Assembly: GCA_008632985.1 (NCBI GenBank)
Contig: QPGO01000082.1
Location: 1 to 64,000 of the forward strand
Reading direction: 5' to 3'
DNA length: 64,000 nucleotides
Source of the DNA: Psammoneis japonica
Lineage: Eukaryota
How positions within the stretch are numbered: the first letter of the stretch is position 1; every line of letters begins with the position of its first letter. The notes under the pieces were generated by a model. That model saw only the letters and a program-made list of their open reading frames with translations. It searched no databases and was not told where the DNA came from. This document shows, piece after piece, positions 24,256 through 54,283 of this stretch. The translations under genes and the position numbers were made by a program.

Positions 24256-26118
24256 TCACATCATCAAAAACACCAACTCAATACCAAGAATTGCAAACGA
24301 TGCAAAAACCACATGGGCAGATTTCTGTCCGCTCGTAGATGTCGGTTCCAATGTGGTTATGGTATCCGCAGGTATCGGAGTCGCGGTAGGTACCAATGTT
24401 GTTGTGGGATCCGCAGGTATCGGAGACGCGGTAGTCGTGGGTGCGCTTGATGGCGTAGCGGTGTCCGAGGCGGTAGGAGACGCGCTTAAGCTCGGCGCGG
24501 CAGATGGCATAAAAGTAGGTGCATAGGACACCGTAGGTGAGACCGACGGAACCGCAGTCAGTGGAGGAGGACGTTCTGTAGGCGAAACCGACGGGACAGC
24601 AGTCAGTGGAATGTGTATGGTGGGAGAGGCCGAAGGGACCGCGGTGGGAGAAGCCGAAGGGACCGCAGTCAGTGGAATATGTACTGTGGGAGAGACCGAA
24701 GGAACCGCCGTCAGTGGAGGACGTTCCGTCGGCGAAGCGGAAGGAACGGCCGTGAGTGGAATATGTACGGTGGGAGAGAACGAGGGAACCGCTGTCAGTG
24801 GAGGACGTTCCGTCGGCGAAGCGGAAGGAGCAGCGGTGAGTGGCAATGGTGTAGGTCCAGTAGGAGGCCCAATTGGCGAGGGTGGGGTGGGTGGCGGCGG
24901 AGTGGGTGGCGGCGTCGGGGGTGGCGGAGGAGGAGTTGGTGGCGGCGTCGGAGGTGGCGGAGGAGGAGTGGGTGGCGGCGTCGGAGGAGGCGGAGGAGGA
25001 GTGGGTGGCGGTGTCGTGACAGGCTCCGGGACAGTTCCTGATCTTAACGCTGGCAACAACTGCGTCGCGTATTGATCACAGACGTTGTCAACCTCTACGA
25101 GATTCAACCTCCTATTCTGGGCCACCAACTGTCTTACCTTGCCTAAGACAAGGCGATTAACCTCTGACACCTCGATATCCAAGAGAATGTTTGTTACATT
25201 GAGACTAAAAATTGTCGGAGGCAATGGAACAGGCCGGAATGCACTAAGCATGATGGAGTCCTCAGACACTTGCCAAAGAGCTTGAAATTGCCAAGGTCTT
25301 CCGTTTGAAGGTGGCCCACCAGACGCGACCCCGTCGAGATGAGTCATCAATCGATTCACCGGGTAATCTTCGGTGCCGCTACCCCGCCAGCAGTCGTAAA
25401 GATTTACATTCTCGGGTGTCAGCGCTGTTTGTTGGCAGGTGAACGCCTGGATAAATGCTGTCACGTCCTCGCCCTCGACATCAGCACAAGCTCTCACAGC
25501 AGCAACGTTTGCTGGATCATTGTCGGGCAAGAATCCGTGGCAATTCTGGGTTTCGTCATAGTTTTGAACAAAGCAATCTCCAGCCAAGGCCAAGACTGGA
25601 CCTCTGTCCAACGCTTGTCCAACAGTGAGAGTCGTAAACTCGTTGCAGTTCGTGATGAATTCAACACCCTTGCTCTGCAGAATTGACGCAACTCTATTGT
25701 CGCAAGCACTCCCTTCCTGACACGCGGAGATCTTGAGCAAGATGAGCTCACCCTGGTTTGCTCCTGCCCAGTCCAGTGTTTCTTGTACCGCATCTTCGAA
25801 CGAGATCTCAGTTACCTCGAACGGACCGTGACGGAAGAAGATGCCACCGTTAATTTCAGCTGGCCGAAGATCAAAGGCTCGTGCTCCACAGTCAGCCTGA
25901 GCGGTCAACGATCCAACCTGGGTCTTGGCAAAGCCTACCGTAATGTCTTCCAACGGAGATTTCTCGGGCACATACCCAGTGGCAGCGTTGTGTGAGAATA
26001 CAAACGATTCTTCGTTTAGGGGCAAACTCCTCTGCAACGGCCGCTGTGCCTGCGCAGACGAAAGCCAAAAGGCCGAAGCAGCCGCCAGCCGTATGGCATG
26101 CTTCAGAAGGCTCGTCAT
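24256..26118 (-). CDS. Secreted PLC-like phosphodiesterase (PI-PLC X-box-like) with Pro/Thr-rich stalk and hydrophobic C-terminus (possible GPI anchor)
   Basis: Signal peptide, SHNAATGY and TQVGSLTAQADCGARAFDLRP X-box-like motifs, PPPTPPPT and PLTAVPSxSPT repeats, C-terminal hydrophobic tail. Confidence 0.8.
   Translation of the reverse strand: MTSLLKHAIRLAAASAFWLSSAQAQRPLQRSLPLNEESFVFSHNAATGYVPEKSPLEDITVGFAKTQVGSLTAQADCGARAFDLRPAEINGGIFFRHGPFEVTEISFEDAVQETLDWAGANQGELILLKISACQEGSACDNRVASILQSKGVEFITNCNEFTTLTVGQALDRGPVLALAGDCFVQNYDETQNCHGFLPDNDPANVAAVRACADVEGEDVTAFIQAFTCQQTALTPENVNLYDCWRGSGTEDYPVNRLMTHLDGVASGGPPSNGRPWQFQALWQVSEDSIMLSAFRPVPLPPTIFSLNVTNILLDIEVSEVNRLVLGKVRQLVAQNRRLNLVEVDNVCDQYATQLLPALRSGTVPEPVTTPPPTPPPPPPTPPPTPPPPPPTPPPTPPPPPPTPPPTPPPPTPPSPIGPPTGPTPLPLTAAPSASPTERPPLTAVPSFSPTVHIPLTAVPSASPTERPPLTAVPSVSPTVHIPLTAVPSASPTAVPSASPTIHIPLTAVPSVSPTERPPPLTAVPSVSPTVSYAPTFMPSAAPSLSASPTASDTATPSSAPTTTASPIPADPTTTLVPTATPIPADTITTLEPTSTSGQKSAHVVFASFAILGIELVFLMM
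24530..25012 (-). repeat. Coding tandem repeats: poly-Pro/Thr units and ~42 bp PLTAVPSxSPT units
   Basis: Visible in both the DNA and the translation of the 24256-26118 gene. Confidence 0.85.
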
Positions 26119-39618: not shown

Positions 39619-40928
39619 CTCCTGCAAAACCGTATGGACGATGACCACCGACCATGTGCTCGAGCATTGCGTTATACTCCTCCTTGCTCCAAGTAATGCC
39701 CACATGACAATGTGGTGTTGCGCTTCGACCGCTTCCCATCGTACATACTTGTAAATCAAGCGCGGTGAAACGGCTGCGACACATTGGATTTGTCTCTTGA
39801 CGACATGCGCATCTCTGGTCCAATTCGATCAGGGGTTTTCCATAATCTCGAAGACGATGGTAGAGAATTGTTCATGGCTACTAACTAATGGAATGAGGAG
39901 GAACCAGTGACAATTATTCAACTTGTGCTGAGAGAGCGTTGTTTCTTGTCCTTCTCGTCAGATCGAAAAGGATGCTCTGGTGTAGAAGTGTGCAGGTGGA
40001 GTTGGAGTGTCTTGCTGTCGCCATTGTAGGGAACAGAAGCGGACGAAGCAATACGAAAGTTTACGAGAAAATCGCCGCAGCTGGAATATTTGAAACAAGG
40101 TTTTTTGACTGATCAACCAACCGTCGGTGTGCATGTCTTCGAAGGGATCGACAGAGATTGCAGACCAACCGTAGCCATGAGAATTGGTGCCAAGCTAAGA
40201 TAGGAGAGAACGACACCTTCGAGGACAATAAAGCATGGAGAGGAAATTTCTCTCTCCAACTTTGGCAGACTCGCGCTTCCGCTGACTTGTTGGCTCAGCA
40301 CGCGAAAAAAGGATTGTATCACTTCCGCCCAATGTCGTCGTGACGAAGAGAGTCGATCCTTTGTTTCCATTCGAGAGAAGAAGTATACTCTGCCATGTTG
40401 TATTGTCATGAAGTTAATGATGATCTAGTCGTTCCAAAAAGAACACTACAATGCGAGGATTTTGTGTTACGGGTATTGGGCACAGAAGATGATTCAAGAA
40501 GATCGNCATTCTCATTCTTGGTTGTGTGGTAAGCTGTTTTAGCTTGATACCAACAAAACTGATCCCAAACGACATTCTTCAGATTGCAGTTCTTACGTAT
40601 CGTGCAATTGCGAACCCCGCGGGATTTCCAGATTCATTGTCCTTATCTGCGGATGAGCGACGCGGGAAACTCGGTCGAAGAGGAAAGGGCGGGGCATATC
40701 AGAATAGGCTAAGGTCAACGACGAAACAGCAAGGCTTGCACAATCATAGCATAGAATAGAGTAATAGCCGGGTCAAGATAATGCATTATGCCAAATTTAA
40801 AAGTTGCAGATAATTATGGTACACGCAATCGGATCTTACAACGCACAGTCACACTTGCGTGCGCAAATTCCCCGTAGTCAGTCTATGAGCTTCGAGGGAT
40901 TGTGGAAACCATATCCAATGTTCTTTAT

Positions 40929-41213: not shown

Positions 41214-42259
41214 TGTCAATGTGGTGAGAGTAGTATGATGCTCAGAGGTCGTCGCTTGAAAGAAGATATGCTTTGGGAAGAAGTATGATAAGAATATTAA
41301 TAAGAAAGAGTTGGTGTTTTGACGAGGTTGAGATGGAGTGATGATGTGGTTGCAACTGACTCAGGGTGGAGGGAAGGTTTTGAAAATCAAAATCAAAAAT
41401 CAAAACGGCATGACGTGGTGTTGCGCGCTGCGTACGCGCGATCGATCGAAGGCGCCCGCGCTCTCGATCCCGTTGGCGACATGGCCATGTCCGTCAGACG
41501 TACGTCCGACTCCTATCATCATGCTTTATTATTTGTGCTTTTTCCTTTTTCACGCTTGCGGCGCGGCTACAAGTTATGATACAGTACAGCACGTTCCTCT
41601 TCTCCATGACGATTTGGACATACACGGTATCTATGATACCTCCTACTATCGGTACCGTAATCGGAGGTCTAAAAACAAAAGGCGTCAGACTAGGCGATGG
41701 TCAAAGGCACGCGTGAAAAGTGAAGAGCCAGTGGTGCTGCTCATTCCTCGGAACACAAACGAGTGGCCTTCACACAATGTTGCGCAGACTTGCCTTTCAT
41801 TCCCTCCTGGCTTGATTGTATTGATTGAATCGATGGAGCATAAACATCCAAGACAGTTTGGCCTTATTTCAACCAGACATCGAGCATGCAGAAGTTGGAA
41901 TTTGAAGACCCAAATGCTGTACAGTACTCTACTACATACCGGTAGAGTAGAGAGTAGATGATAGACCAAGTGATAGACTCTAGCTAGACTACAGTACCGT
42001 ACCTTTTAGTTTTGCTGGAGTGAGAAAGATCCGCGTTCAGTGAGTCGTGAGTGCAGTGCAGTATGTCTTTACGTGGTTTGTACGCAGACGTTCTCGCGCC
42101 GTCTCGGCTCGCTCACGAGTCTGGAATTGTGATTCGTGATTCACATTCAAGGTCGCACTTTACTTCGCACTATGACTTGCGACTGAACACTATTTTAGTA
42201 CGAGTATTTGAGATCGATGCTTATTACTTACACTACTGGTTCTCATACTATCACCAACC

Positions 42260-44815
42260 ATGGATAACACCAGACGAAACTCGATCTATTCGCCTCGATA
42301 TGAGGCAGGCAGAAGTGATTTCATATCCTCACACGACGACACCGCTGAGGAATGGGATGCTGAGGAGCTCGCGGTTCGAGATGAAAGGAGCCTGAACTAT
42401 TCTATTGAGTCAAGTGCGTTCAACTCTAACTATGACTATAGACGTCGTAGGCCTTCTAGAGACGATACCACGCTTGTCAGCGTAACTTCCGCGCAGCAAA
42501 GGTCTTTCACTCGCGACGTAGACAGCATTGGGCCATGGGATATGACTTCGATGTCGTCTGCAGTCGTCGGCGATGAATGGGGTGTCCACAAAGTGAGCAA
42601 TGCATACGAGGATATGCAAGAACATTCATTGGCTTCATTGGACTCAGTGTCCTTGTACTATGACTACAAAAACGAAAACGACGGTAGGAGAAACATGGAT
42701 GTAGTAGAGAATGAGGACGATCACAAAGGACGAGATAGAGCAACATCCGGGGAAGAATCATCGCTCAGTATTGTGAATAAGAAACAAACCTACAATGGTA
42801 CATCAAGTTCAGAGAGTAGTAGAACCTCTTTTTGGCAACGGAAAAGAGGGGCGAGCAATAGAACTTCAACAGAAGATGCAGGAAGTTTTTCACGAGGTCA
42901 GGTCATCGCCAATTCAGACTCGAGTCCAGTCTCCGGTTCGATTGATTCTAGTAGAAGACTTTCGCAGGACAATCAAGAAGAAAATATTCAAAGCTCAGTG
43001 AAGACTATCGAGGAAGATAGGCGTTTTACTGTTTTGCATGATTCCGTCGCTTCCTCTTGTCACGAGCAACACTGCGATGAGGAAGTTGGAACCCAGAATC
43101 AAAGCACAACGACATCGAAAACGGACAGCACTGGCAGCGAAGCTGGGTTGCCTCAGGAATTAGTTGAGAAAAAAAGAGAAAAGGGTGTGCCTCCAGGTCT
43201 AGGGACACGCTTACTAGATCAGTCTCGTCATCTGGTGAACAGCGTTATCTCTTTTCGATCGCAAGATAGCAATGATCGAGTTGCGGACGAAACACCACTC
43301 TTTGACTACAGCAGCTATGGGGTTCCCCAAGATCAAGATGACACAGCAATGAGCGCGGTTACATATGACTACAGCAGCTATGGTGTGCCCCGAGGTGATG
43401 ACGACATTGCTGTACCATATCATCAGAGAGATGCGTCACAGGAGATCTCTGTTGAAAGTAGCAGCATGTTTAGTGCGACTCCAGCGCTCACGCGTCAGTC
43501 GAAAAGAGGGGGCAGATGCACTGGCAGGCGATTTGTTATTGTTGTTTGTCTCTTGTGTGGAATAGTCTTTGGCATTTCTGTGGCAGTCGCAGTGATATTC
43601 TTCAGAGAGAACGAAGGTAATAACAACACAGAATTCGTTTCTCCGACGTTGACACCGAGCCCACCGACAACTCTCCAGCCAACGAATCCACAAGGTACAG
43701 GGTCTCTCCCACCTGAGCTGCTTCCCGATGTTCCGTGTGAAACGGGAGCGGTTCCTTTTGATGTTCTCATTGAGACAGACGCATTTCCCGCGGATACGAC
43801 TTGGGAGGTTATTCAAAACTCGGTATCTGTTGCTCAAGGTGGTCCCTATGACGATCCATTCACGACCGTCATTGAGCGAGTTTGCATATTACCAGCTGTA
43901 TCAGATGGAAAGGATTGCATCTCTTTTGTTATAACAGACCTCGACGGGCTTTGCTGTGAGAACGGAGAAGGCCGATATTCGTTCTTCATGCAGGGTGTAG
44001 AGCTGACAAGCGGCGGAAAGTTCCTATCATCAGAAGGTTTCAGAGAGTGCTTCGATCTCCAAGCATCGACGCCGTCACCAACGCAAGCTAGTTCACAAGG
44101 AAGTACGCCCCCAAGTCCGATCGTAACGCCCAGTCCAACCACAGCGCCAACTGCGGCGTCTACTCCTTCTCCTACTACTACATTTTCACCAACGTCAAGC
44201 CCAACTTCTGAGCCAACTCCAACACCGACATCTCCTACTTTGTCTCCAACACCCGTACCCACACAGACTCCGTCAACTCCTGAACCTACACCAAGTCCAA
44301 CCACAGTTTCAACACCATCACCAACATCTACTGCAACACCAGAACCCACCCAGACTCCGTCAACTCCCGAACCTACACCAAGTCCAACCACAGTTTCAAC
44401 ACCACCTTCGACATCTCCACCGCCAACTTTGATTCCAACTCCTGAAGCTACACCAAGTCCAACTATACCTTCGACGCCAGTACCGACATCTGCACAGAGT
44501 CCAAGGCCGACACCTCAGCCGACGCCTGATCCGACACCAAGCCCAACTCCGAGACCAACGCCATCGCCGCTTCCACAACAGACTTGTTTGAGCAGATATG
44601 GCAGCGACATTGATGTCTGTAGTGAGTTTCTGCCGTCTGGAGAGTGCACCTTTTTCGTATCCTTGGGAGGTGAGAGTTGCGATGATTATTGCAACAGCCG
44701 TGGCGGAACGTGCTTGTCGGCGCAGGATAATATCCCTGGTCTGAGTTGCGCTAGTTTTCGTGAGCATGCATGCAGTGCAAGCAGAACCGCCACGATTTGC
44801 ACTTGCAGTCTCTAG
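42260..44815 (+). CDS. Type II membrane protein: long disordered N-terminus, [12 protein letters not shown]...DGLCC domain, PT/PS-rich stalk, Cys-rich C-terminus
   Basis: Uninterrupted 851 aa ORF with [26 protein letters not shown]. Internal repeats: DYSSYGVP x2 and an 87-bp-period [19 protein letters not shown] x2. Confidence 0.85.
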
Positions 44816-45328: not shown

Positions 45329-46090
45329 CTAGTCAAGTGACACACCTGCTAGTTCGGTAGTGTCTCTGTCACGAGTGGAGATGGCATTGTCCCTTTCGAT
45401 TGAAACAGTAATACAAAATGGTGTTCCCACCTCATCAGCTGGTCGGTACCGTCGTCCAATGGCCCCGGCACCAGCCCAGGCTACATTCCAACGAAACTTT
45501 AATTGCTCAAACAAATTTTGTGATGTCTCGATTAGCTCTGGCTTATTTTTGACAAGAGGTAGGATGGATGCCTTGATGGGAGAAACACTCTGATGAAACT
45601 TGAGAAAGTTACGTTTCTCTCCTCCAATCTCATCTTCGGCGTACACAGAGCATCTCAGCATCAAACGGTCGACACCGAGGGACGGTTCCATGCAATGTGG
45701 GATAAACTTCTCCTTGCTTTGATCGTCAAAGCATTCCAAGGCTATGAAAAGAACAAGTTATGTGAGTACAACATGAGGTCACCGCTGCGCATGACAATCA
45801 ATGACAATCACTCTTGCCGGATCCTTCCAAATGTTGTGTCAAGTCAAAGTCGCCACGAGCAGCAATCCCATACAGTACGCTCTTGGGTTCCAAACGGAAA
45901 CTTGAATGTAATAACAGTACAAGCACGGACGTAATGAGCCTAGTTGTCTCCGTGGTGAATATCCCAATTCATCAAAACCTCCCAATCTTGCTTTCATGTT
46001 TCGTGGTGCGGTTTCCACACGTCCTCATCAACGGGCGGGATGCAATACTTTGCTCGAATCCACGAGAACGGAAGATGAAATGATGACTCC
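45329..46090 (-). pseudogene. Glycyl-tRNA synthetase (class II, alpha2-type) C-terminal fragment, disrupted
   Basis: FIFRSRGFEQ (motif 2), AHYVRACT.ITFKFPFG, IAARGDFDLTQH, EPSLGVDRL (motif 3), GAIGRRYRPADEVGTPFCITV. Contains frameshifts, a stop and deletions. Confidence 0.85.
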
Positions 46091-47017
46091 AAAGACATCG
46101 TTTGGGCATGACCATACAGTTAGAGGTGGGACGATACAGAATCCAGCAACGGCAAGAGCTAAAGATCGTCGCACCATCTTCTGGTGAGAAAAAATGAGAA
46201 GCAAAGCAAGCGCAAAGATACAAAAATTTGAAATATAAAACATCCATGATCATAAATTTGGAAATGTTAAAAATCTACGTCTGATGTGCGTCCGCAAAGA
46301 TCCGACGACTAACCGTGTAGAGCAATGCGCGACCACACACCACACAAGCATCAATCAAAGAACGAGAGCGACTTGACCATGACGCTCGCGATCGATTTGC
46401 CGCTCGTATTTGGAAGATTCGTCATGCCAGTACCGGTTCCGACATTTTTGAAAATATCTGATCCCACTGGGACAAGTTGACGAAACCTACCAGGCACCAA
46501 GAGCACACGAGTCGTGGAAGACCGAAGAATTGACAGTTCCGTGGATTTTAGAAGTACGTGCTTCTGGTACACGTGCAATCCGATTCTGAACTCAGTTCTG
46601 CTCTCGATTTGCTCATAATTCTGACAATCAACTCAAACAACACGGCAGCGAAATGGAAGAGTTGGTTGTGTTTCTCTTTTGACCATGGCGCTCGTTAAAG
46701 TGGCCATGGGCGCTCTGCTTGCTGCCGGCTTTGTCGTTGCAGAGTAAGGTATGTGTGTTCTTGTCGCGATAGTGTCTCGTGTTGTTCCCTTTTCTTTTGT
46801 ATTTCATCCACTCACCTCACTCTCTCCTTCCTGTGCACAGAGACAGAATTATCATTTCACCGTGGTTGTGGGCAAGAAGCGGATACGTGTGATGGGACTT
46901 TTGGATGCTGGTTTCTAGGTTGCATAGCGGTCTGGGATTTTCAAGACGGGTCGATGTACTGATTGTGGTTTTGAGATTGGATTCACCAAGGGGACGATTC
47001 GAAAAGCACAGCAGCAA

Positions 47018-47637
47018 TACGAGGCTACCTATTAGGACTTGAGCAGACGTGGCACTCGGTCTCCCAACGACGTTGGAACAAGAGACGGCCTCTTGTCAAT
47101 TGCTCTAACCCGAAGCAGTAGCAGAACTCGTACTTGACTTGTTGTGGCTTTTGCTGCCGTGGGGTAGCGTGAACGTGGAAGCGGGGTTACTCATTAGGAC
47201 TTGAACAGACGTGGCACTCAGTCTCGTAAACCGAGACGGCCTCTTGTCAATTGTTCAGACTCGAAGCAGTAACGCGAACTCGCGCACGAATTCACAGGTA
47301 CGGAATGTTAGACTGCGGGGTCACCTACTAGGGCTTGGGTAGATGTGAAGGCTTCAGCCTCTCATCAATTACTCGTAGTCGCGAAGCAGTGACACAACAA
47401 CTCGCACGCATATCCATTGGTTGGGAGAAGAACGATTTTGCCGCACAGGCAAGGTGGACGTTAGACGGGGCTACCTAATAGGGCATCGGCGGACCGGGCA
47501 ATCAGCCTTTACCGATAGTCACGAAGCAGTAGCGCAACACTCGCCAACGCATTCACCAAGGGGGGCATTACGTCAGTTGTGGGGTTGCCTACTAGGGCTA
47601 CCTGTGAGGTAGTTTCGAAGCAGCAGCAAAAACTCAC
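47018..47637 (+). ncRNA. Array of five homologous structured-RNA units of unknown family
   Basis: Units at 47018-47132, 47181-47283, 47314-47406, ~47465-47545 and 47579-47637 share YYAHUAGG ... CGAAGCA. Their closing helices covary: GCTAC/GTAGC, GTTAC/GTAAC, GTCAC/GTGAC, GCTAC/GTAGC, GTTGC/GCAGC. Confidence 0.7.
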
Positions 47638-48199
47638 CAGATGCCCCCACCTGTTCCACCAACAAGTCCTTCCGAAGAGGTGTTTGTTACAACATCCGGG
47701 GACGATGTCAGACCATTTCAAGGCTAGTACTCAGACTTTTGATGACTCAATCAGTTCAAGAACATTGCAATCTATTGGAGAAACGCGCTTTCTCTATACT
47801 TCCACCATCTCGGTTCGCTTTTACAGCACAAGAATTCAGGCTCGCAGTAGACGAGGCCGCTTCAGACGTCTTGTTGAAACAGAGAGGCGACATTGACGAA
47901 AGAGAATTCATTGACCACGCTCTAATTCAGGCTCGCATTGCTATCATGTAAGTCGTGTCACTTCGGAAGTCAAGCTTGTTGTTCAAACATTGACGAAAGA
48001 GAATAGAATAAAGGAATAGAACAAGAGTTCCTAACATGGCTATCTTTATTTTCGTGTAGTTTATTTAGTTCCAGGACGCACGTCAATTTTCGTACAGCTC
48101 TCTTACTTACAGACGTCTTCTCTTCAGCAAGGGGTATTCGTTATGACATACCCCAAGGTTTGTTGCTTTCTCATCTCAACGAGGAACCCTGAAAAGCTT

Positions 48200-49500
48200 A
48201 CTATCAGCCGCGCCTCAGCTCCTTTTGCAGTTGAAGCGGGCATCACAAAGGCCATCGTGACAGAACCGTGTCATTGAAATGTCCTTGGCGCTGCCAAATG
48301 ACTACACCCTCGAATACAAGCCAGGCGATTTCCTATGTTTGATTGTTCACAACATGCCACAGGCAGTTGGGTTCGATCTTGAGATGTTGCGAAGAAACCA
48401 CGGTATCAAGTCAACGCAGACGGTGTCTGTTGATGTTAACCATCCAATCACCGTCGCGGAGGCGGTTGCCAATCACATCAATTTGTGTTCTCCATTGACG
48501 AACAAGCGCAGTTGCATTTGCTTTCTCAATTTGTGCGCCTTGAGACTTCTTGCTTCGAAAACTCCACAGGGGCGGCAAATTTCTGACACGTATGTTCATG
48601 GTCGGCGCATGTCAGCAGTTGACATACTTCATGACTTTCCATCGTGTCGATGTTTGTCGCTGGAAGGACTCTTGGGTATGTTATCAGGCATACCTCCTCG
48701 ATGCCATTCGGTGAGCTCTAGAGCCCGCTTGACAAGCGCAAGCCGCTCAGTCTTACGGTTTCCGTTGTAGATTATCTAACTGTTGTGCTCTGGGCCTAGA
48801 GTAGAGAGTTTGGTAAACAGAGTTGGCAAGGACATCCGTGGTCGGCGACGTATCGGCGGAATTGCGATGTTTGCCCTTTTTGTCTGCTCACTCACTCGAA
48901 AATACTGCAAAGATGCATGTCTTTCTGAAACCGACTGCAGAGTTCCGCGTGCCTGTGACCATGTTGACGCCGCTCACATTGATTGGACCTGGCACGGGCA
49001 TCACTGCTCCTTTTCTGGGATTTCTTTCAAGTTGCTGGGCAGAAATCAAATCTGTGGCATCAGCAGAATTTGCCATTGCATTGGTGGGCAGGGGCACATC
49101 ATGGCGTGGTGGCAACCATGAGCTTGAACCCAACAAGTTGCCCACCTCTGACAGTGATGCGAGGCAGTGGTTGAACCTGGGTGTCGATTGCAGGAGGCAC
49201 CAGTTTTGGATCAAATCATGTGTTCATTGGCTGTTGTCATAAAGAGTGTGATGGCTGCACAGACAAGAAATGGAGCAACTGCACAAAGAGGGCATCATTT
49301 CCAAATCACACGCGGCCTTTTCTTGAGAAAGCCAGCAAAACGAGCCTGTGCCCAGGATCTCATGAAGCAGCAAGGGTCGCAGTTGACTTGTCTTGTTTTG
49401 AGTGTGGACTCATCTGTTTGCATGTGCAGGGATGGGTGCACCTTGGCACATGATGGCATGATGGTCAATCTGTGTCAGTTGATTTTTGATTGCTCGGCAC
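48200..49500 (+). pseudogene. Diflavin reductase fragment (methionine synthase reductase / NADPH-cytochrome P450 reductase family; FAD and NADPH domains), disrupted
   Basis: LEYKPGD, IPPRCHSVSS (family RYYS), LIGPGTGI.APFLGFL, CAQDLM (family YVQD), SVCMCRDG (family YVCGDG). Multiple frameshifts. Confidence 0.8.
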
Positions 49501-52311: not shown

Positions 52312-54283
52312 CTATCCACCTAATCGAGCCGCAGCCGCAGCAGCCATTAGTTCGCGCTTGTGCTTCGATACGCAGTCAGAGCTGCAATACTCATAATCAA
52401 GTCTATGAAACATTTGCGACCTTCGACCCTTCATCTTCTTCTGACAAAAGTCGCATACATTCTTCTCGCCTTTCGCTTTGGGAAGGAGCCCATCACGAAC
52501 ACGCTTGGCATCCTCGGCTTTCTTTCTTTGCTCGTCCTGCTCCTTCTGCAGCTTTTCAGCTTTCTCCTTCTCGGCACGTTCCTTTGCCTTCCTTTCTTTC
52601 TGTCGCGCTCGCTGTCTCCTTTTCTTTTCTGCGGCTTTGTCTTGTTTGCGTGCAAGCGCCTCATCATCCAGCGGAGGACCAACTTTGGCGTCCAGATCCC
52701 ACGCCCATGCTTCTTCCCCAAGATTGGCTCGAGCGGTGCGAAACGCATTTCTGACCTTCTCATTTGACGCTAAGAAATACGGTGGGCGATTTCGACCATC
52801 AACGAGGCAAGGGTTGGCTCCAAACTGTTCCAACAATATAGAAACGCACTCTGCGGCAACTTTCTGATCTACAAGCAAACTATCGTCACTGCTAGGGTTT
52901 TCGTTGGTAGACGCAGCGGCAAAATGAAGTGGCGTCATCTCTTCGGGCCCGGCACGGTCGTGAATTGTTTCCAGTTTGCATTCATGGTGATGCTTGAGTA
53001 TTTCCTTTAAGGCGGTCAAGTCCCCTGTAGCCGCAGCGAGATGGAGCGGACTAAGCGCCTTGATTTCAACAGAGCTTTCTAGCTTCGGATTCTCCGGTGG
53101 TTGCTCTTCAGTTTTACTCGTGTCGATACTTTCCGCAGCCATCGGCATCTTGTTGCTATCAGTTTCCTCAATCTCTACTTCTCGTACAGTCATGTCCATC
53201 AATATATCGTAGACAGTGCAGACAGTTTCATAGGTTGGACGTCCGACGTCTAGAGGAATCTTCCTCAATCTCTCATCTCTGCGGTCCAAAACTCCCTCCA
53301 CAAACAAATCCTTCTTCATTGTGGACGGGCAGGAGATCAACACATGAGAAGCATTTTCAATGTACGGCTGCCATTCTCTCAATGTAGACATGACGTCCTC
53401 CCGTAGTGCAATTTCTTCCGCCCTGCGTAATTGAGCTCCCATTGAATTGGCTTTTTGCTTCGAACTATCAAGAGATGATTGTGCTCTACCCTGTTTTTTC
53501 CGAATGGTGTATCTTTGATGGGCCTGGTACGTCGATTGTAAGATAGAATAGTCGCACGACCAAAATTAGATGATGATGAGTGGAAAAGTCGGTACGAGGT
53601 AGTCTGCATTGACATCTGCCCACCTTGTGCGCAACACATTTGTCTTTTCGAAAGACCCCTCCAGCAAATCTTCCACTCTTTAGGAGCAACAAAACGATTG
53701 GTTTGTCTAACGTCACCATGTCCGTCACCACCTTGAGATAAGAACGACAAACTGCAGCATGATCAAACTGAGTCTGCTTTCGTGTCAAGACAAGAGTGGG
53801 TGCTTCCAAAGTTAAACCGTCATCATTCAAAGCAAAGGAGAGCCGTGGGATCATGGCTGACTGCTTTACTAAATATTTGTTTTCTTTCATGGTCTTTTTC
53901 TCTCGCGTCTTCCTGGTGTGCTTGGGCGTCGTTGACTCTTTCTTACTCTTACTCTCGTCGTCCGTGGGGGGTAACAACAGGTGCTGATCTTCCTTGGGGC
54001 TCCCAGAAGAGTTCTCACCGCTACCACCATCAGTACCTTGTAATTCTTCTTCTTCTTCTTCTTCCGATGATGACGAAGACGCCTCGTGCTCATCATCGGA
54101 CAGCCAAGGCTTTCCTTCGGATTCCTCCGAATCCGAGTTAAACGGCAGTACGGCCGTGCTATCAAACGTGGACGAGCCATCCGTTCGCTGATGAGAGGAC
54201 GAGGATTTCTTCTCAATGTGTTGCGACGCTTCTCGCAGCAACTCCAGCGCTTCGTCCGAATAAAGCTTGACTATCCTTGCCAT
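52312..54283 (-). CDS. ANKZF1: ANKZF1/Vms1 (VLRF1 domain, ankyrin repeats, coiled coil, C-terminal treble-clef); 2 exons
   Basis: LLKSGRFAGGVF...AHK|AHQRYTIRKKQGRAQS (intron 53524-53623), SMGAQLRRA, ankyrin SPLHLAA and TPLHFAA, CDFC...FHRLDYEYCSSDC. Confidence 0.9.

Follow-up and report, generated by a model that had tools for sequence, protein, structure and literature searches.

A tandem array of five long hairpins in Psammoneis japonica: a candidate structured-RNA family with a loop-E-like internal loop

Inspection of a stretch of 64,000 nucleotides (nt) of Psammoneis japonica DNA (GenBank assembly GCA_008632985.1, contig QPGO01000082.1, positions 1 to 64,000; hereafter the window) led to a tandem array of five structured units, U1 to U5, which are given here, like all coordinates, in the numbering of the window and on its + strand unless marked otherwise. 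The array is more than a repeat: it is a candidate new structured-RNA family, apparently built from a known three-dimensional module, and we consider it probable that its RNA structure is under selection. As to its role, the explanation that we favour, with a confidence that remains somewhat short of even, is that the array forms a multivalent platform at which one RNA-binding protein would dock.

Five units with a common architecture and compensated stems

Reading of positions 46500-48200 by eye, together with a repeat finder, revealed five direct repeats, diverged and all on the + strand, whose starts lie 162, 134, 150 and 114 nt apart (Table 1). A covariance model constructed from the five aligned units, with 14 pairs placed by hand, recovers these five units only across the 64-kb window (E <= 10; 52.9-100.3 bits). 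When each unit was folded singly by minimum free energy (MFE), the same layout was found in all five, the outer stem of U4 requiring its flanks: an outer stem of 5-6 base pairs (bp), an A-rich bulge of 4-7 nt confined to the 3' strand, a helix of 5 bp, a 6x6 internal loop and, beyond it, a G-C-closed variable hairpin of 22 to 77 nt. RNAalifold yields this layout de novo, with an unbranched consensus structure. The 6x6 loop always lies exactly 5 bp from the bulge, and the outer stem carries a kept G-U pair. A preliminary description of this DNA had reported five units of shared architecture at this place and on this strand; the reading, the covariance model, the five MFE folds and RNAalifold all agree with it. 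It had also pointed out shared linker pieces, and these are indeed present, ATTCACCAAGGGG at 46981 and 47551 and ..GTTAGAC ahead of U3 and U4. What it missed is that the linkers are predicted to belong to the structure: with the flanks folded in, the pieces auucac(ca)agg and gRaYguuagac pair across each unit and add a basal stem, so that the real units would be long hairpins of 88-151 nt.

The stems vary in sequence and keep their pairing. In the alignment used for the model, standard pairs fill 98.5% of 66 cells, and both sides have changed in 5 of the 14 pairs; for the RNAalifold structure, pairing extends to 92% of 100 cells, and double changes affect 10 of 22 pairs, as compared with 3.1 +/- 1.4 in column shuffles. 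For either structure, none of 500 such shuffles came up to the data in percentage of paired cells, in count of pairs with double changes or in covariation score, and sliding the 3' partners by 1-3 columns lowers pairing to 29-58%. The compensated pairs of the helix and outer stem quoted in the preliminary description are correct in our alignment; for instance, pair 8-106 reads CG, UA, UA, CG and UG from U1 to U5, pair 9-105 is UA in four units and CG in one, pair 10-104 AU in four and GC in one, and pair 3-118 CG in four and UA in one. Mean pairwise identity is 86.7% in the loop, 78% in the outer stem, 72% in the 5-bp helix, 62.9% in the insert and 55.3% in the bulge, an order which is that of a functional RNA. 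Among the 100 paired-position cells there are 14 G-U pairs and 8 non-pairs; since the 14 G-U cells would become A-C mismatches on the other strand, they designate the + strand, as had been proposed. Folding of the - strand retains the layout in U1 only, and a GT..AG intron found upstream lies on the + strand, in agreement with the strand of the array.

A quite different view would be that of a functionless, decaying tandem DNA repeat, in which the hairpins are inherited palindromes and the compensation arose by chance or through gene conversion. We judge it quite improbable. It would be in keeping with the small sample, five related sequences, with the weak z-scores of folding presented below, with the near-palindromic form of CUANUAG in the loop and with the silence of Tandem Repeats Finder, which did not call the array and thus indicates that the copies are old and diverged. 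However, conservation decreases from loop to stem to linker, double-changed pairs are in excess over shuffles, and G-U pairs are found on one strand only, so that DNA palindromes have not been kept; furthermore, gene conversion would homogenise the units rather than create compensated differences between them. The invariant loop, the compensated stems and the strand of the G-U pairs therefore bear out the preliminary description in preferring selection on RNA structure to a decaying satellite. As an independent count, the pattern TAGG..CGAAGCAG occurs three times in the window with gaps of 19-49 (0.13 expected) and three times with gaps of 50-80 (0.12 expected), two of the latter being in the array and one a stray at 26017; this stray match (26017-26081) is not found by the covariance model and was discarded.

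The internal loop and its relation to known families

The loop, 5'-YYANUA facing 5'-GAAGCA, has 9 of its 12 positions invariant in the five units, namely A14, U16 and A17 on the 5' strand and G97, A98, A99, G100, C101 and A102 on the 3' strand. At positions 12/13, four units have C-U and the remaining one U-C, and the only freely variable position is 15 (U, U, C, A and C from U1 to U5). [quoted passage not shown] With the definition given there, the signature A-N-U-A opposite G-A-A is present in the sequences of all five units, and the freely variable N15 is precisely the nucleotide that would bulge (PMC2879506). Consequently, the loop, which the preliminary description had put forward as part of a candidate new motif, fits a known, recurrent module and would not be a new kind of loop. 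The same signature explains the likeness to hairpin-ribozyme loop B that had been noticed.

One further property of the loop is that its 5' strand, CUANUAG, is near-palindromic (47029-47035, 47475-47481 and the other loops), and that CUAUUAG of U1 is the exact reverse complement of CUAAUAG of U4. Loop-loop pairing between units or transcripts is formally possible as an alternative to loop E.

None of the 4227 families of Rfam 15 matched anywhere in the window at the gathering score, nor, for 46800-47800 on both strands, at E <= 10. The claim that the units loosely recall the hammerhead, hairpin-ribozyme loop B and helix 8 of the signal recognition particle (SRP) RNA and yet match none of them is thus upheld, by these searches as well as by direct comparison. 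For the hammerhead, there is no CUGANGA on either strand of 46990-47660 and no three-way junction. SRP helix 8 has a symmetric loop (CAGG/AGCA) that the array resembles in having AGCA in its 3' and AGG in its 5' strand, but here G18 pairs with C96, so that UAGG is not opposite AGCA, there is no 3-bp helix capped by a GNRA loop, and no SRP model matches in the window. Box C/D small nucleolar RNAs (snoRNAs) are rejected, RUGAUGA being absent on both strands and CUGA on the + strand of the array; ARAGORN finds no transfer RNA or transfer-messenger RNA gene in the window; and a cluster of microRNAs, which would show a conserved duplex arm of about 21 nt with small mismatches at most, does not fit either, as the conserved part is the unpaired 6x6 loop and the adjoining pairs change on both arms.

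The hairpin ribozyme deserves a closer look. The GAAGC of the array can be set against G21-A22-A23-A24-C25 and its A.UA against the U41-U42 region, both between flanking helices. A survey of 941 natural, permuted hairpin ribozymes gives G+1, G8, C25, A38 and A22-A24 as invariant and U41/U42 as nearly so (PMC8216279). In our own alignment of the positions, the equivalent of A24 is G in all five units and that of U41 varies freely (U, U, C, A, C); a purine equivalent to A38 is missing as well and position 12 is a pyrimidine. This ribozyme needs two internal loops, A and B, on adjacent helices, whereas the array has one conserved loop; U5, the minimal unit, has no second conserved loop and no loop A carrying G+1 and G8, and no covariance model matches.

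The invariant internal loop within covarying stems does resemble both self-cleaving ribozymes and small-molecule aptamers (riboswitches), and the GAAGC and A.UA strands resemble hairpin-ribozyme loop B. That the array would be such an element in five copies, an option left open by the preliminary description, nevertheless seems to us very improbable: no ribozyme or riboswitch model matches at E <= 10 in 46800-47800, there is no CUGANGA and no three-way junction, the single conserved loop departs from the hairpin ribozyme as just described, and contigs run uncut across the units. We know of no precedent for five-fold tandem aptamers in eukaryotes. The suggestion of cobalamin or S-adenosylmethionine as a ligand rested solely on an adjoining, apparently decayed gene fragment, and nothing supports catalysis or ligand binding.

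Searches for related arrays elsewhere gave no matches in metagenomes with a strict pattern, and none in two further viral scans. With a looser pattern, 9 loci were obtained from metagenomes, 5 from prokaryotes and 1 from viruses, each with a single match. These 15 loci score at most 20.8 bits, where the real units reach 52.9-100.3 bits; of the 14 matches from metagenomes and prokaryotes that were checked, 1 has a fully paired helix. We treat all of them as due to chance. A literature search, judged by titles and the beginnings of abstracts, brought no diatom precedent, and to our knowledge very few structured non-coding RNAs other than the universal ones have been described for diatoms.

The transcript, its copies and the neighbourhood

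Contigs of four public sequencing runs, all recorded as 'DNA?', were compared with the locus; two of these contig sets are called X1 and X2 here. The X2 contigs stop at 46748 and then read 46841-46856 of the window, and an end at 46839 reads 46735-46746; the X1 contigs keep the intervening segment. Of the two starts that had been proposed for an intron ending at 46840, 46749 is therefore the one at which the X2 contigs join, and 46744 is not retained. This joined form without the intron may be cDNA-like or a processed DNA copy; in both cases, a spliced + strand transcript must have existed. Set X2 resembles a transcript assembly (30 million letters, longest record 16 kb), but it is recorded as 'DNA?' and its kind is not on record, so that neither an expression level nor RNA ends can be claimed from it. 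Its cover is next to none in 46304-46571, under 1 in 48046-48179 and none from 48180 on. At about 48007-48012 there is an AATAAA, and the multi-copy relatives of the locus stop resembling the window at 48007. No protein family was found in any open reading frame (ORF) of 46351-47951, and a 112-amino-acid (aa) ORF inside the locus has no homologue. The array apparently sits in exon 2 of a spliced, non-coding RNA polymerase II transcript.

Table 1. Coordinates and composition of the five units and of the transcript that carries them
Feature	Position	Strand	Score (bits)	Long hairpin	Composition or evidence
U1 core	47018-47132	+	95.7	47002-47152	Outer stem UACGAG/CUCGUA; helix GCUAC/GUAGC; loop CUAUUA/GAAGCA; bulge AGAA; insert 77 nt
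U1 basal stem	47002-47017 with 47133-47152
U2 core	47180-47284	+	100.3	47169-47295	Outer stem GCGGG/CUCGC; helix GUUAC/GUAAC; loop UCAUUA/GAAGCA; bulge GCGAA
U2 basal stem					GUGAACGUG paired to CACG..UUCAC
U3 core	47314-47406	+	93.3	47302-47415	Outer stem UGCGGG/CUCGCA; helix GUCAC/GUGAC; loop CUACUA/GAAGCA; bulge ACAACAA
U3 basal stem	47302-47308 with 47408-47415
U4 core	47464-47545	+	75.2	47453-47557	Outer stem CGGG/CUCG; helix GCUAC/GUAGC; loop CUAAUA/GAAGCA; bulge GCAACA
U4 basal stem					GGUGGACGUU paired to AACG..UUCACC
U5 core (minimal unit)	47578-47638	+	52.9	47561-47648	Outer stem GUGGG/CUCAC; helix GUUGC/GCAGC; loop CUACUA/GAAGCA; bulge AAAAA; insert 22 nt
U5 basal stem					GGGGGCAU paired to AUGCCCCC
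Exon 1	46665-46748	+			X2 contig; 5' limit is the contig end only
Intron (92 nt, GT..AG)	46749-46840	+			X2 contigs join across it; X1 contigs keep it
Exon 2, carrying the array	46841-48007	+			X2 contigs 46940-47430, 47401-47712, 47705-47834 and 47873-48007
Candidate leader-controlled ORF, 28 codons	47643-47726
Candidate leader-controlled ORF, 63 codons	47708-47896
Candidate leader-controlled ORF, 69 codons	47742-47948

Besides the features of Table 1, the transcribed region contains small linker hairpins between U1 and U2 (47153-47168) and between U3 and U4 (47438-47452), which are outside the repeated unit, and an exact 18-nt direct repeat (47890-47907 and 47987-48004), the second copy of which comes just before the AATAAA. 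A 20-codon ORF at 46685-46744 (MALVKVAMGALLAAGFVVAE) is hydrophobic and signal-peptide-like; after its stop, TAA at 46745-46747, a single base precedes the exon junction.

Could the array be a cis-acting leader of an mRNA, controlling one of the short ORFs downstream? There is an ATG 5 nt after U5, covered by the basal stem of this unit. But these ORFs are short and have neither a family nor a homologue, and the upstream 20-codon ORF together with five stable hairpins would block scanning; of all the explanations considered, this is the one to which we give the least credence.

Another possibility is a polycistronic precursor from which the hairpins are cut out, e.g. by an RNase III-type activity in the basal stem followed by trimming, to give stable RNAs of roughly 60-150 nt belonging to an undescribed small ribonucleoprotein (RNP), with the loop and bulge as the protein-binding core, much as the kink-turn is the protein-binding core of box C/D snoRNAs. 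Every unit is an independent hairpin closed by a basal stem built from the linkers, the insert differs in length while the core stays, and small RNAs that lie in clusters and are transcribed together are frequent in plants and protists. However, X2 contigs of 489 and 313 nt cross unit boundaries, which points to the existence of unprocessed RNA, or of DNA; box C is absent, as is box D on the + strand, and no snoRNA or other family of Rfam matches. Such a precursor is in our opinion unlikely, though not negligibly so.

The locus apparently belongs to a multi-copy family, a status deduced from the depth of individual contigs and not from a measured copy number. In set X1, variant contigs over about 46371-48007, at roughly 94% identity, have a word depth of about 450-630; the exact-match contigs that accompany them have a depth of about 60, so that the variants are about ten-fold deeper, and it is this difference that we read as a multi-copy family. 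Altogether, 76 X1 contigs lie on a 4-kb stretch with identities of 80-100% (19/14/20/23 by identity band). One X1 contig (depth 61.7) skips 46871-47080 and 47255-47412, from which unit number seems to vary between copies. Among the listed differences of the abundant variant, 8 in U1 are at unpaired positions and a ninth, 47019 A>G, keeps pairing (A-U to G-U), while in U2 47204 A>G accompanies 47255 T>C at a predicted A-U pair; 127 further differences are not listed. A 235-nt contig from a marine sediment metagenome covers 47414-47648 with 11 differences, but it has 47607 A>T in common with the variant that is abundant in X1 and X2 and was not accepted as an independent lineage.

Such abundance could also mean that the array is an RNA element of an amplified or mobile DNA family, its hairpins serving nuclear export, packaging or recognition by a reverse transcriptase, in the way that repeated internal-loop hairpins serve the retroviral constitutive transport element. 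The 76 contigs, several of them about ten-fold deeper than the exact ones, and the seemingly variable unit number would fit. Against this, none of the 139 ORFs of at least 110 aa in the window encodes a reverse transcriptase, integrase or transposase, terminal repeats, direct or inverted, are absent, the window shows no second copy of the locus in a self-BLAST with 46000-48300, and the copies extend to upstream DNA and contain a spliceosomal intron, as would be expected rather from gene duplication. We consider a mobile origin distinctly unlikely.

For the rest, the window is eukaryotic DNA dense in genes, housekeeping genes among them. At 45329-45757 (-) there is a glycyl-tRNA synthetase exon; the named relatives among the matches listed are all diatoms, with at most 67% identity, which supports a diatom origin and shows no close sequenced relative among those matches. 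On the other side of the array, 48261-48770 gives a partial match to FAD_binding_1 (E 3.4e-8, profile positions 36-191 of 222), near which no nicotinamide adenine dinucleotide (NAD)-binding or flavodoxin part was found. Within 48100-48770 the frame changes near 48270, where '..TKAIVTEPCH*' resumes as 'RVIEMSLALPNDYTLEYKPGD' in another frame, and this shift makes the fragment look decayed. Farther away, 42212-44815 is an 867-aa open frame with long Pro/Thr/Ser-rich repeats (..PTPSPT..), a Cys-rich end and no Pfam family, and 52315-53565 (-) is an ORF whose bVLRF1, ankyrin and VATC domains correspond to the architecture of a Vms1/ANKZF1-type peptidyl-tRNA hydrolase. The single N of the window is at 40506.

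A possible docking platform

Our favoured explanation, a docking platform with several sites for one protein, can be put in structural terms as follows. In the loop, a sheared A17-G97 pair, a trans-Hoogsteen U16-A98 pair, a bulged N15 and a parallel A14-A99 pair would form a loop-E-type surface, held at a fixed half-turn from the A-rich hinge and the kept G-U pair. Each unit would thereby present an identical distorted-groove surface to one RNA-binding protein, and a transcript would have five such sites; an RNA partner in place of a protein is less likely. Xist, through its A-repeat, NORAD, through its repeat units, and the bacterial CsrB and RsmZ all act via many copies of a protein-binding unit.

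Several points weigh against this interpretation. Pattern scans of the metagenome, prokaryote and viral collections gave no homologue outside this organism. The + strand folds of U1 to U5 have z-scores of -2.02, -1.23, -2.09, -0.41 and -0.46, barely better than shuffles, and the count of further standard pair types does not exceed that of shuffles, 442 and 85 of 500 being as high for the two structures. All five sequences are paralogues from one locus, and since the shuffle control ignores their relatedness, it overstates significance; five sequences are, moreover, too few for a formal covariation test. In the U2 variants, 47253 G>A and 47257 A>T would break predicted pairs unless unlisted partners change too, and the window copy, which differs from the abundant variants, may itself be a diverged one. 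Finally, the binding protein is hypothetical, and the three-dimensional reading of the loop derives from its sequence only.

A further-reaching idea is that of a new eukaryotic class of structured RNA with a dedicated partner, present in many copies per genome in a diatom lineage, either as the core of an undescribed small RNP freed from a polycistronic precursor or, and this could be the bolder option, as a ligand-sensing or self-processing module on a loop-E scaffold. We regard it as possible, if doubtful. What gives the array its interest is a compact minimal unit of 59 nt, with an invariant loop, a fixed 5-bp spacing to the A-rich bulge and a kept G-U pair; a transcript that many gene copies apparently produce holds this unit in five versions. 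Should a specific protein bind it, the result would be a new RNA-protein recognition pair in a major group of marine primary producers and a natural multi-site tag for work on diatom RNA; if the units are released as small RNAs, they would represent a new class of small RNPs.

Among known systems, the closest is the loop-E module as seen in eukaryotic 5S rRNA loop E, hairpin-ribozyme loop B and the central domain of PSTVd, with the same A-N-U-A and G-A-A strands between two helices. The array differs in adding the invariant G-C-A and Y-Y, which makes a symmetric 6x6 loop, and, as compared with the bulged-G (sarcin-ricin) type, in that the base which would bulge is not G. Besides, loop E is a module and not an RNA family, and the form of the array's loop is read from the order of its nucleotides. 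In its general organization, the array is comparable to the Xist A-repeat, the NORAD units and CsrB/RsmZ, being also made of diverged tandem copies of one short structured unit within a long transcript that is apparently non-coding; it has no likeness to them in sequence or structure, its own units being long hairpins with an internal loop and not short hairpin loops.

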